Of a stretch of DNA of 64,000 nucleotides, positions 23,247-32,910 are shown piece after piece. The notes beneath the pieces were generated by a model that saw nothing but the letters and a program-made list of their open reading frames with translations, had not been told where the DNA came from and searched no databases. How positions within the stretch are numbered: position 1 is the first letter of the stretch; every line of letters starts with the position of its first letter. The DNA is taken from NCBI RefSeq assembly GCF_001677475.2, contig NZ_CP015229.1. The stretch is one strand, 5' to 3'. A program made the position numbers and the translations under genes. The DNA comes from Escherichia coli (lineage in GTDB: Bacteria > Pseudomonadota > Gammaproteobacteria > Enterobacterales > Enterobacteriaceae).

Positions 23247-23617
23247 TAATTTGTCCTTTTCAGTCAGTGCAAAAGTCGAGTAAAAGGCATAACCTATCAC
23301 TGTCATAGGTAAGAGCTTAGATCAGGTGATTGCCCTTTGTTTATGAGGGTGTTGTAATCCATGTCGTTGTTGCATTTGTAAGGGCAACACCTCAGCCTGC
23401 AGGCAGGCGCTGAAGATACCAAAGGGTAGTTCAGATTACACGGTCACCTGGAAAGGGGGCCATTTTACTTTTTATCGCCGCTGGCGGTGCAAAGTTCACA
23501 AAGTTGTCTTACGAAGGTTGTAAGGTAAAACTTATCGATTTGATAATGGAAACGCATTAGCCGAATCGGCAAAAATTGGTTACCTTACATCTCATCGAAA
23601 ACACGGAGGAAGTATAG

Positions 23618-24181
23618 ATGTCCTTGATTAACACCAAAATTAAACCTTTTAAAAACCAGGCATTCAAAAACGGCGAATTCATCGAAATCACCGAAAAAGA
23701 TACCGAAGGCCGCTGGAGCGTCTTCTTCTTCTACCCGGCTGACTTTACTTTCGTATGCCCGACCGAACTGGGTGACGTTGCTGACCACTACGAAGAACTG
23801 CAGAAACTGGGCGTAGACGTATACGCAGTATCTACCGATACTCACTTCACCCACAAAGCATGGCACAGCAGCTCTGAAACCATCGCTAAAATCAAATATG
23901 CGATGATCGGCGACCCGACTGGCGCCCTGACCCGTAACTTCGACAACATGCGTGAAGATGAAGGTCTGGCTGACCGTGCGACCTTCGTTGTTGACCCGCA
24001 GGGTATCATCCAGGCAATCGAAGTTACCGCTGAAGGCATTGGCCGTGACGCGTCTGACCTGCTGCGTAAAATCAAAGCAGCACAGTACGTAGCTTCTCAC
24101 CCAGGTGAAGTTTGCCCGGCTAAATGGAAAGAAGGTGAAGCAACTCTGGCTCCGTCTCTGGACCTGGTTGGTAAAATCTAA
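23618..24181 (+). CDS. ahpC: Alkyl hydroperoxide reductase, peroxiredoxin subunit C
   Basis: 187 aa; peroxidatic cysteine motif FTFVCPTEL. Confidence 0.97.
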
Positions 24182-24320
24182 ATTTCCTTCGTCTTTCACG
24201 CCATAGCGGCGTTGGCGTCGCCCGCTCACCCCGGTCACTTACTTGTGTAAGCTTCCGGGGATTCACAGGCTAGCCGCCTTGCTCTGGCGTGAAATACTTC
24301 GGAAATTCACCTAATTCTTC

Positions 24321-24345
24321 GGGTGCTGCGGCACCCGATTTTCTT
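24321..24345 (+). terminator. Intrinsic terminator/attenuator between ahpC and ahpF
   Basis: gggtgc-tgcg-gcaccc hairpin followed by gattttctt. Confidence 0.55.
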
Positions 24346-24425
24346 CCCCGCATCATGATGCAAGCTGCATCCAGGTAGCCGCAGAGGCCGCTTGCATGAT
24401 GATGTTTAAAGCCCAGGAGATAAAC

Positions 24426-25991
24426 ATGCTCGACACAAATATGAAAACTCAACTCAAGGCTTACCTTGAGAAATTGACCAAGCCTGTTGAGTTAATTGCC
24501 ACGCTGGATGACAGCGCTAAATCGGCAGAAATCAAGGAACTGTTGGCTGAAATCGCAGAACTGTCAGACAAAGTCACCTTTAAAGAAGATAACAGCTTGC
24601 CGGTGCGTAAGCCGTCTTTCCTGATCACCAACCCAGGTTCCAACCAGGGGCCACGTTTTGCAGGCTCCCCGCTGGGCCACGAGTTCACCTCGCTAGTACT
24701 GGCGTTGCTGTGGACCGGTGGTCATCCGTCGAAAGAAGCGCAGTCTCTGCTGGAGCAGATTCGCCATATTGACGGTGATTTTGAATTCGAAACCTATTAC
24801 TCGCTCTCTTGCCACAACTGCCCGGACGTGGTGCAGGCGCTGAACCTGATGAGCGTACTGAACCCGCGCATCAAGCACACTGCAATTGACGGCGGCACCT
24901 TCCAGAACGAAATCACTGATCGCAACGTGATGGGCGTTCCGGCAGTGTTCGTAAACGGGAAAGAGTTTGGTCAGGGCCGCATGACGTTGACTGAAATCGT
25001 TGCCAAAATTGATACTGGCGCGGAAAAACGTGCGGCAGAAGAGCTGAACAAGCGTGATGCTTATGACGTATTAATCGTTGGTTCCGGCCCGGCGGGTGCA
25101 GCGGCAGCGATTTACTCCGCACGTAAAGGCATCCGTACCGGCCTGATGGGCGAACGTTTCGGTGGTCAGATCCTCGATACCGTTGATATCGAAAACTACA
25201 TTTCTGTACCGAAGACCGAAGGGCAGAAACTGGCAGGTGCGCTGAAAGTTCACGTTGATGAATACGACGTTGATGTGATCGACAGCCAGAGCGCCAGCAA
25301 ACTGATCCCGGCAGCGGTTGAAGGTGGTCTGCATCAGATTGAAACAGCTTCTGGCGCGGTACTGAAAGCACGCAGCATTGTCGTGGCGACCGGTGCAAAA
25401 TGGCGCAACATGAACGTTCCGGGCGAAGATCAGTATCGCACCAAAGGCGTGACCTACTGCCCGCACTGCGACGGCCCGCTGTTTAAAGGCAAACGCGTAG
25501 CGGTTATCGGCGGCGGTAACTCCGGCGTGGAAGCAGCAATCGACCTGGCGGGTATCGTTGAGCACGTAACTCTGCTGGAATTTGCGCCAGAAATGAAAGC
25601 CGACCAGGTTCTGCAGGACAAACTGCGCAGCCTGAAAAACGTCGACATTATTCTGAATGCGCAAACCACGGAAGTGAAAGGCGACGGCAGCAAAGTCGTT
25701 GGTCTGGAATATCGAGATCGTGTCAGCGGCGATATTCACAACATCGAACTGGCCGGTATTTTCGTCCAGATTGGTCTGCTGCCGAACACCAACTGGCTGG
25801 AAGGCGCAGTCGAACGTAACCGCATGGGCGAGATTATCATTGATGCGAAATGCGAAACCAACGTCAAAGGCGTGTTCGCAGCGGGTGACTGTACAACGGT
25901 TCCGTACAAGCAGATCATCATCGCCACTGGCGAAGGTGCCAAAGCCTCTCTGAGTGCTTTTGACTACCTGATTCGCACCAAAACAGCATAA
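24426..25991 (+). CDS. ahpF: Alkyl hydroperoxide reductase, flavoprotein subunit F
   Basis: Trimmed to ATG at 24426 ([10 protein letters not shown]...), which has AGGAG upstream; redox motifs CHNCPD and CPHCDG. Confidence 0.95.
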
Positions 25992-26020: not shown

Positions 26021-26053
26021 AGCCGCCGGGGTCAAACCTGGCGGCTTTTTTAT
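26021..26053 (+). terminator. Intrinsic terminator of ahpF
   Basis: agccgcc...ggcggc hairpin followed by a T6 run. Confidence 0.6.
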
Positions 26054-26055
26054 TG

Positions 26056-26096
26056 CAATAAAAAGCCCCGCCGGGATGGCTCCGGGCAGGGCGGGA
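26056..26096 (-). terminator. Intrinsic terminator of uspG (convergent with the ahpF terminator)
   Basis: GC-rich inverted repeat cccgcc...ggcggg followed on the minus strand by a U-run (plus-strand aataaaaag). Confidence 0.5.
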
Positions 26097-31377: not shown

Positions 31378-32910
31378 TTATTCCTTCACCTGATGCACAA
31401 CATCGATCACCGAGCCATCGCGGTAACGCACAACGGCAACGACGCGGTCGGTGAATTCAATCGGCTGTGGTTCACCGGTCAGCAGACGCGCACGTTCGCG
31501 CAGCCACTCAATAGAAACCACTTTGATACCTGCTTCCTGCAGACGTTCTGCCAGCTCCGGACGTGCCGGGTTAACAGCGATACCGTGGTCGGTAACCAGG
31601 ATATCGACGCTGGAACCCGGGGTGATGCAGGTCAGCACGTTATCCACCAGAGTCGGAATACGACCGCGTACCAGCGGTGCGACGATGATGGAAAGGGCGG
31701 ATGCAATCGCGGTATCGCAGTGACCGCCGGAAGCGCCACGCAGTACGCCGTCAGAGCCAGTCAGCACGTTGACGTTGAACTGGGTGTCAATTTCCAGCGC
31801 GCTCAGTACCACCACGTCGAGACGATCAACCGATGCACCTTTCGAACCCCAGTTGGCGTACTGGTTGGCGCTGATTTCGATATGATTCGGGTTACGAGCC
31901 AGCGATTGCGCAGCGTGGCTGTCAAAGCTCTGCACATCCAGCAGTTTGCGGATCAGACCTTTTTCGTGCAGGTCAACCATCGTCGCGGTAATACCGCCAA
32001 GGGCGAAGTCGGCGCGAATATCGTGGCTACGCATTTTGTCTTCCAGGAAACGGGTTACCGCCAGCGATGCGCCGCCGGTGCCGGTTTGCATGGAGAAACC
32101 TTCTTTGAAGTAGCCAGAGTTGACAATCACATCCGCAGCGCTACGGGCAATAAGCAGTTCGCGCGGGTTAGTGGTCATACGGGTTGCACCAGCGCCGATT
32201 TTTGCAGCATCGCCAACGCGATCAACTTTGACGATCAGATCAACCTGATCTTGCTCAATGCTTGCCGGATTATGCGGATAAGGCAGCAGTTCTTCGGTAA
32301 GCATCACAACCTGTTTTGCGTTGTCGGCATCAACCATTGCATAGCCGAGGGAGCCGCAGCAGGCTTTACCGGTGTAGCCGTTGGCATTACCGAATTCATC
32401 ACAGGACGGGACGCCGAGGAAAGCCACGTCGATATTCAGTTCGCCGCTCTGTACCAGATGCACACGTCCGCCGTGAGAGTGGATTTGCACCGGTTCCGCC
32501 AGCAGACCACGGGAGATCTCTTCCGCCAGTGGACCGCGCAGGCCGGAGGTATAAATGCGGGTGACCACACCCTGACGAATATGTTCTACCAGCGGTGCAT
32601 GGCAGTCGCTCAAAGAGCTGGACGCCAGGGTCAGGTTTTTAAAGCCCATCTTCGCGATGACGTCCATCACCATATTGACGGTCAGGTCACCGCCACGGAA
32701 AGCGTGGTGGAAGGAGACGGTCATGCCGTCCTTTAAACCAGAACGACGAATAGCGTCTTCCAGGTTGGCGCACAGTTTGCGATCGCGCGCTTTTTCAGCC
32801 TGGTAGGTTTGCTTTGGCGAGTTCTGGAAAGCGGCAAGATCGCATTCAGCGCGACGATTCCAGGCCGCTACCCGTTCTTGTCGTTGAGATTGTTCAATTT
32901 TCTGCGTCAT
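31378..32910 (-). CDS. citF: Citrate lyase alpha subunit
   Basis: Trimmed to ATG at 32910 (MTQKIEQSQR...); 510 aa. Confidence 0.95.
   Translation of the reverse strand: MTQKIEQSQRQERVAAWNRRAECDLAAFQNSPKQTYQAEKARDRKLCANLEDAIRRSGLKDGMTVSFHHAFRGGDLTVNMVMDVIAKMGFKNLTLASSSLSDCHAPLVEHIRQGVVTRIYTSGLRGPLAEEISRGLLAEPVQIHSHGGRVHLVQSGELNIDVAFLGVPSCDEFGNANGYTGKACCGSLGYAMVDADNAKQVVMLTEELLPYPHNPASIEQDQVDLIVKVDRVGDAAKIGAGATRMTTNPRELLIARSAADVIVNSGYFKEGFSMQTGTGGASLAVTRFLEDKMRSHDIRADFALGGITATMVDLHEKGLIRKLLDVQSFDSHAAQSLARNPNHIEISANQYANWGSKGASVDRLDVVVLSALEIDTQFNVNVLTGSDGVLRGASGGHCDTAIASALSIIVAPLVRGRIPTLVDNVLTCITPGSSVDILVTDHGIAVNPARPELAERLQEAGIKVVSIEWLRERARLLTGEPQPIEFTDRVVAVVRYRDGSVIDVVHQVKE

Follow-up and report, generated by a model that had tools for sequence, protein, structure and literature searches.

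In Escherichia coli, endogenous hydrogen peroxide is scavenged mainly by AhpCF, and AhpC is among the most abundant proteins of this bacterium. There is a single promoter for both genes, yet the cell requires far more AhpC than AhpF.

Concerning the region between the two genes, several described systems offer close parallels. Intrinsic terminators situated within operons place a GC-rich hairpin and a U-tract between co-transcribed genes and give rise to an upstream-only transcript together with distal read-through. In the T7 early mRNAs and in pflB, RNase III leaves a stabilising 3' hairpin and it is the upstream message that is stabilised, as is the case for ahpC. The ERIC/IRU elements (Sharples & Lloyd 1990; Hulton, Higgins & Sharp 1991) are 127-bp imperfect palindromes of enterobacteria, described in a passage of a review as a MITE of approximately 127 bp found in Enterobacteriaceae.

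The nearest precedent is the ahpC-ahpF locus of E. coli K-12 itself. Gordon et al. 2017 (mBio, PMC5371410) reported position 639695, designated "intergenic (ahpC-ahpF)", as the second-ranked novel RNase III site of strain MG1655, with 4 reads in each wild type replicate versus 3,598 reads in the rnc mutant (a ratio of approximately 900). In the same study, purified RNase III cut a T7 transcript that begins at position 24109 of the window (the stretch of 64,000 nucleotides of E. coli DNA analysed here), the cleavage sites were confirmed by 5' RACE, and ahpC mRNA had a half-life of approximately 14 min in the wild type, which the rnc mutation shortened to approximately 6 min, ahpF stability being unchanged. 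Those authors proposed that cleavage leaves an exonuclease-blocking hairpin at the ahpC 3' end; they raised the issue of stoichiometry, an effect on the AhpC:AhpF protein ratio being proposed, while a passage of a later review states that the mechanism of the RNase III effect on ahpC had not been elucidated. The main text of Altuvia et al. 2018 makes no mention of ahpC or ahpF, and a literature search on northern analysis or on mono- versus bicistronic transcripts of E. coli ahpC/ahpF found nothing useful.

In the present work, the spacer of the window is resolved into three separate modules, namely an ERIC repeat (A), a terminator-type hairpin (B) and an RNase III site (C). Every module is of a known kind, and B and C had already been documented for K-12 at this locus. 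It is likely that these three independent modules together make the ahpC-only message more abundant and longer-lived than the ahpF message, in which case the spacer would illustrate how unequal output is obtained from a leaky terminator combined with an RNase III cut that leaves a protective hairpin on the upstream message. The additions made here are the apparent evolutionary layering of the region (an old terminator, a later hairpin C and a changing repeat slot) and the frequencies of the ERIC alleles.

Organisation of the spacer

The features of the locus are given below in window coordinates; the corresponding K-12 coordinate (NC_000913.3) is the window position plus 615327, which places the ahpF start at 639753.

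23618-24181, plus strand: ahpC coding sequence, 187 aa, with its TAA stop codon at 24179-24181 (open reading frame list and K-12/E. coli annotation).
24181-24307, no strand assigned: ERIC/IRU repeat (module A), a 127-bp imperfect palindrome (inverted arms, fold, alignment to other copies).
24223-24266, minus strand: conserved ERIC core, the ERIC1R/ERIC2 primer region, with the consensus orientation on this strand.
24319-24345, plus strand: hairpin B, of the intrinsic-terminator type (structure, K-12 Term-seq, covariation).
24351-24404, plus strand: hairpin C, RNase III processing site (structure, and Gordon et al. 2017 for K-12).
24415-24419 and 24426-24428, plus strand: ahpF Shine-Dalgarno sequence AGGAG and ATG start codon (sequence; the start agrees with RefSeq ahpF).
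24426-25991, plus strand: ahpF coding sequence (open reading frame list and RefSeq ahpF start).
26021-26056, plus strand: strong terminator-like hairpin following ahpF, with a 10-bp stem of which 8 pairs are G-C, TTTTTTATT (terminator scan); this is the end of the operon.

Over 801 bases, the ahpC and ahpF DNA of the window is 99.4% identical to that of E. coli K-12. The spacer itself comprises 244 nt (24182-24425) and is matched in K-12 by one of equal length without indels, the two differing at four of the 244 positions (24254, 24287, 24290 and 24353); these are also the positions at which the window strain departs from the source of the in vivo and in vitro evidence, all of which comes from K-12. 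Three of the four differences convert a mismatch in K-12 into a base pair in the window, two being located in the right ERIC repeat and one in hairpin C, and such changes could have been selected for the pairing they provide or have arisen through templated correction of quasi-palindromes.

A first-pass annotation of this DNA had described the spacer as highly structured, a description substantiated by a minimum free energy of -103.1 kcal/mol as compared with -76.2 +/- 4.8 kcal/mol for shuffled sequences (z = -5.56). A sigma-70 scan of the spacer yielded no internal promoter for ahpF, and this candidate was rejected. An Rfam search of the spacer returned no match to a cis-regulatory family. 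Its sole signal was a minus-strand match to Vibrio AS5, which at 23.9 bits lies below the gathering score of 96; it coincides with the ERIC core, and the AS5 model probably contains ERIC-like sequence. A known RNA family was consequently rejected as an explanation.

The ahpF open reading frame as listed extends 5' to an ATG in the same frame at 24396, whereas the annotation places the start at 24426. In E. coli, the 3' arm of hairpin C contains three ATGs that share the ahpF frame and belong to this reading frame from 24396. An upstream reading frame or an N-terminal extension of ahpF commencing at ATGATGATG (24396) was nevertheless rejected despite its in-frame position in E. coli, since the frame and the stop codons vary among Citrobacter, Enterobacter and Superficieibacter and since no Shine-Dalgarno sequence precedes it.

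The ERIC/IRU repeat and its alleles

The segment 24181-24307 is an ERIC/IRU repeat, an element of the mobile type, and overlaps the ahpC stop codon by a single base. With the described elements it shares the exact length (127 bp), the long inverted repeats at its termini, the conserved core, dispersed copies, an intergenic and co-transcribed position and internally deleted short forms, and there is no substantive difference between them. Its terminal arms of 27 nt (24181-24207 and 24281-24307) are 81% complementary, and an inner 14-nt pair is also present. The plus strand folds with -57.1 kcal/mol (z = -6.46) and the minus strand with -69.1 kcal/mol (z = -9.73), i.e. the RNA of the transcribed orientation has the weaker fold of the two. 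A core pattern assembled from the ERIC1R and ERIC2 primers, the sequences of which were confirmed from the published literature, matched with one mismatch at 24223-24266 on the minus strand, as against no match in 100 shuffles. Full-length alignments were obtained with the ERIC copies at aceF-lpdA, 3' of ybiT and at ybhI-ybhJ, and across E. coli the segment was detected at 31,487 places in 5,424 genomes, with a median of seven BLAST-detectable places per genome. The copy at ahpC-ahpF is presumably an entry in the original ERIC papers. A TA target-site duplication has been attributed to the ERICs of Yersinia; at the present locus no clear duplication is visible, the element being bordered by TA on the left (24179-24180) and by CA on the right (24308-24309), with TA on the right in Enterobacter sp. 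Bisph1 and different flanks in other genera.

The identity of this repeat had been missed in the first-pass annotation, which assigned two distal 9-bp arms to the control region. Of these, tttcacgcc is located at 24194-24202 as had been indicated, while ggcgtgaaa occupies 24286-24294 and not 24285-24293, a shift of one base; both constitute the best-paired part of the terminal inverted repeats of the ERIC.

Within E. coli, K-12 and the window carry a full ERIC at this locus, SCU-106 carries a copy with a 74-bp internal deletion, and in O157:H7 approximately 14 nt are left. An allele census was performed over 5,426 E. coli genomes, in which a full copy was defined by at least 90% identity and the number of short forms was obtained by subtraction. 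The full allele (127 bp) accounts for approximately 1,763 genomes (~32%) and the short allele (53 bp) for approximately 2,543 (~47%), these two together being present in 4,306 genomes, and the remnant allele (14 nt) was found in 1,114 (~21%). Since the repeat is shortened or nearly gone at the locus in approximately two thirds of E. coli genomes, it is dispensable and represents a non-obligatory passenger of the control region. One pair of the terminal repeats varies: it is A-U in the window and A.C in K-12, and SCU-106, with its short allele, has G-C there.

In other genera the same slot contains a full ERIC (Enterobacter sp. Bisph1, Citrobacter werkmanii, Superficieibacter and one MAG) or a short one (E. 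albertii and one MAG). The ERIC of Superficieibacter electus resembles the E. coli copy with but a handful of differences, the rest of its spacer being more diverged; this likeness may represent unexpected conservation for a supposedly neutral repeat or, alternatively, a sign of transfer. In Citrobacter sp. FP75, with the full C. werkmanii copy as reference, the outer ERIC ends are joined (AATTCGCT directly followed by GCGAATT), and such apparently empty alleles thus retain the outermost ends of the inverted repeat. A comparison of these junctions suggests that empty alleles may have arisen by internal deletion of an old ERIC and do not represent a site that was never occupied, although the O157:H7 remnant is less clear in this regard. 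REP/BIME-like palindromes, of which GCCGGATGGCGCGATGCTTATCCGGCCTAC is an example, were observed in the ERIC slot of RIT691 (Enterobacteriaceae), E. asburiae and Leclercia. The slot following the ahpC stop codon has been occupied and vacated time and again by ERIC and REP repeats, different repeat families recurrently landing or being retained there.

Terminator-type hairpin B and RNase III hairpin C

Hairpin B consists of an 8-bp stem formed by TCGGGTGC and GCACCCGA (24319-24338), in which six pairs are G-C, with a UGCG loop and, thereafter, the tract UUUUCUU; a GC stem, a 4-nt loop and a U-rich tract, i.e. the features of an intrinsic terminator, are all present. The element had been recognised in the first-pass annotation as gggtgc, tgcg and gcaccc at 24321-24336 followed by gattttctt at 24337-24345, and these positions hold, the full stem measuring 8 bp. 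It folds with -16.6 kcal/mol (z = -5.99), a value that was equalled by none of 200 shuffles. A terminator-pattern scan of a 3-kb region gave six sites, hairpin B among them, where 3.8 were expected, which is not significant alone, and the significance of hairpin B is consequently drawn from its folding z-score and its phylogenetic conservation.

Concerning the latter, hairpin B and a T-rich tract were found in nearly all of 22 orthologous Enterobacterales spacers, which were collected via AhpC from a listing of 80 loci in which Salmonella and Klebsiella are absent. In an alignment of 18 Enterobacterales spacers, 98.6% of the hairpin B cells are paired and three pairs have changed on both sides: in E. 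asburiae a C-G pair has become U-A, in Erwinia a G-C pair has become A-U, and in Enterobacter sp. Ag1 a G-C pair has become C-G. The closing pair alternates between A-U and U-A. The resulting covariation score was reached in none of 500 shuffles, and slid controls were paired to 31-41%. Short spacers of 68-129 nt, in which the hairpin is located 20-22 nt before the ahpF start, occur in Pantoea, Providencia, Brenneria, Arsenophonus, Erwinia and Mangrovibacter. The T-tract is also retained in genera that lack hairpin C, where a spacer of approximately 70 nt amounts to the terminator and the ribosome-binding site and the T-runs are 6-8 long. Judged from these comparisons, the terminator-type hairpin B is ancient across Enterobacterales.

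The first-pass annotation had named Term-seq as a means of finding ahpC-only ends, and published data for K-12 provide them. In the Term-seq analysis of MG1655 by Adams et al. 2021 (supplementary file 1), a plus-strand 3' end was called at 639668 under two conditions and at 639670 under a third; these correspond to window positions 24341 and 24343, both within the U-tract of hairpin B. No further 3' end was called between 638796 and 643497 in that analysis, neither after ahpF nor inside hairpin C. Term-seq alone does not prove termination at B, because trimming subsequent to RNase III cleavage can produce the same 3' end. However, since the T-tract is retained where hairpin C is missing, and since a block to exonucleases needs the hairpin only, hairpin B would appear to terminate transcription and not merely to stop exonucleases. 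In this respect it resembles the intra-operon terminators described above, from which it differs in that the read-through RNA is also cut by RNase III just downstream.

Hairpin C is formed by the arms catcatgatgcaagc (24351-24365) and gcttgcatgatgatg (24390-24404), which lie where the first-pass annotation had located them and in which 14 of 15 positions are paired, the exception being a G.G mismatch at 24357/24398. The stem thus comprises 6 + 8 bp (7 + 8 bp with the flanking pair G24350-U24405) and carries a weaker apical extension and a variable apex; when extended, its arms measure 21 nt and are 86% complementary, equivalent to approximately two helical turns. It folds with -27.7 kcal/mol (z = -4.05) and ends 10 nt 5' of the AGGAG Shine-Dalgarno sequence, as had also been noted previously. 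Position 639695 of Gordon et al., whose reads were mapped to NC_000913.3, corresponds to window position 24368 on the 5' side of the hairpin C apex. The MG1655 site is therefore the same locus and hairpin as that of the window, apart from a T at 24353 instead of the K-12 C, by which a U-A pair takes the place of a C.A mismatch close to the stem base. In contrast to the T7 and pflB examples, the protecting hairpin at ahpC is probably the separate, older stem B and not the leftover half of the RNase III substrate, given that no 3' end was called inside hairpin C.

Hairpin C occurs at one place per E. coli genome, and its interpretation as a repeat family was rejected on this basis. Of 5,426 E. 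coli genomes, 5,421 carry B and C together at 95-99% identity; both are single-copy and, save for position 24353 in hairpin C, unchanged among four aligned E. coli alleles. Their folding is independent of module A, as the pair probabilities of B and C are alike in alleles with a full, short or remnant ERIC: those of the B stem are 0.99-1.0 and of its closing pair 0.86-0.99, and those of hairpin C are 0.99-1.0 in the window and 0.77-1.0 across the three alleles.

Beyond E. coli, hairpin C was found in 13 of 23 spacers, those of Escherichia, Citrobacter, Enterobacter, Leclercia, Superficieibacter and relatives. The distance from the terminator to the ATG is 86-93 nt where hairpin C is present versus 20-31 nt where it is not, and the compared junctions read TTTCTTGCCAGGGAGATAAACATG in Mangrovibacter versus TTTCTT and, further on, GCCCAGGAGATAAACATG in E. 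coli. On account of this restricted distribution and longer distance, hairpin C represents a block of approximately 66 nt inserted between the older terminator and the ribosome-binding site. No compensatory changes were observed in hairpin C among the 13 genera: eight of 16 pairs are invariant and six depart only by mismatches. As the arms are invariant in sequence and the few changes break pairs, the comparison speaks neither for nor against this fold, the support for which is experimental; RNase III sites are not defined by compensatory change. The 3' arm together with the following TTT (GCTTGCATGATGATGTTT, 24390-24407) is nearly invariant in the 13 genera, whereas the 5' arm and the apex vary, and this near-invariance hints at a possible constraint beyond recognition by RNase III.

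Proposed mechanism and rival explanations

In the mechanism that we propose, transcription from the ahpC promoter would cross the ERIC (24181-24307), yielding a long imperfect RNA hairpin that is carried as a passenger. At hairpin B (24319-24338 and UUUUCUU) some polymerases would stop, producing ahpC-only RNAs that end at 24341-24343. The RNA arising from read-through would carry hairpin C and would be cut by RNase III in essentially every molecule, thereby separating the ahpC and ahpF halves. The ahpC half would presumably be trimmed in the 3'-to-5' direction back to B, where exonucleases would be blocked and the ahpC mRNA would become longer-lived; the terminator hairpin would in this manner also protect the processed RNA at its 3' end. 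The ahpF half would begin in the 3' arm of hairpin C, approximately 30-40 nt upstream of the start codon. The net result would set the AhpC:AhpF ratio. The first-pass annotation had anticipated partial termination and/or an RNA processing element, an outline that agrees with the Term-seq and RNase III data for K-12; its inclusion of what is now seen to be the ERIC is not sustained, the repeat being non-obligatory.

A different reading of the same data would dispense with termination altogether: B would be no terminator in vivo, read-through would be complete, and exonucleases would trim back to B after cleavage of C. Processing is clearly very efficient, as there is almost no wild type RNA across the apex of hairpin C (4 versus 3,598 reads), the high coverage at 24368 in the rnc mutant indicates substantial read-through, loss of RNase III lowers the stability of ahpC mRNA, and the U-tract of E. 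coli is interrupted (UUUUCUU). This reading is nonetheless considered decidedly unlikely, as the U-rich tract, for which an exonuclease block has no need, is conserved across families and even in taxa devoid of hairpin C, with T-runs of 6-8, and as the combination of stem, loop and tract is that of a canonical intrinsic terminator. RNase III might instead act on translation, if hairpin C, or a long-range pairing promoted by it, were to mask the ahpF ribosome-binding site until the cut is made, as at adhE. The stem of C does end 10 nt before the Shine-Dalgarno sequence, and its near-invariant 3' arm becomes the 5' leader of ahpF. Moreover, the minimum free energy structure of the spacer pairs the Shine-Dalgarno sequence with UCUUC (24342-24346; segment z = -1.75), and a fold that includes 33 nt of ahpC pairs GUCUCUGG (24154-24161), at the 3' end of ahpC, with CCAGGAGAU. 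Such pairing is missing from the centroid structures, has a probability of 0.04 once 60 nt of ahpC are included and is not a conserved feature in other genera, and ahpF mRNA is equally stable in the rnc mutant; masking was accordingly rejected as an artefact of sequence context and is held to be highly improbable.

The term attenuator, used in the first-pass annotation, would imply regulated termination, in which an antiterminator fold, a leader peptide or a ligand would turn termination at B on or off. The location of B between two genes of one operon speaks for such an element, but no spacer sequence competes for either arm of B, the pairs of which have probabilities of 0.86-1.0 in all alleles with the stem at 0.99-1.0 in every one; no Rfam cis-regulatory family is found in the spacer, and the upstream sequence is freely replaced by ERIC, by REP or by nothing. 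Regulated attenuation is therefore extremely unlikely, and partial termination at B is retained as the preferred reading. The ERIC itself might also be an active regulator, if the stability of ahpC mRNA were altered by the long hairpin of the repeat or by an RNase E site that one orientation exposes, and in that event the three alleles would endow E. coli lineages with different AhpC levels. The repeat adjoins the ahpC stop codon and is co-transcribed, several genera have a full or short ERIC at the same site, and the A-U, G-C and A.C variation at one terminal pair suggests upkeep of pairing in E. coli; in addition, a passage of a review cites work on Yersinia in which ERICs located 3' of a gene alter decay of the upstream mRNA via RNase E. 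Set against this, just ~32% of E. coli genomes carry the full copy and ~21% have merely the 14-nt remnant, other genera have REP-like palindromes or nothing in the slot, and hairpins B and C fold alike with or without the ERIC. We consider a regulatory ERIC unlikely, and the passenger status assigned to it above is maintained.

A more speculative proposal, to which we attach little credence, is that the ERIC allele changes the decay of ahpC mRNA and hence the AhpC:AhpF ratio, or else that the 3' arm of hairpin C (GCTTGCATGATGATG) serves ahpF translation. If the former is true, peroxide defence would be tuned by a selfish repeat in a natural, lineage-specific way. The three ERIC alleles of E. 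coli represent natural material for comparison.

Upstream of the operon, the dsbG-ahpC gap of the window contains a match to the Rfam family STnc70, an enterobacterial sRNA, at 23380-23473 on the plus strand (44.1 bits versus a gathering score of 40). The K-12 Term-seq data of Adams et al. 2021 place a 3' end, observed in three conditions, at 638796, which corresponds to window position 23469 and lies 149 nt upstream of ahpC.
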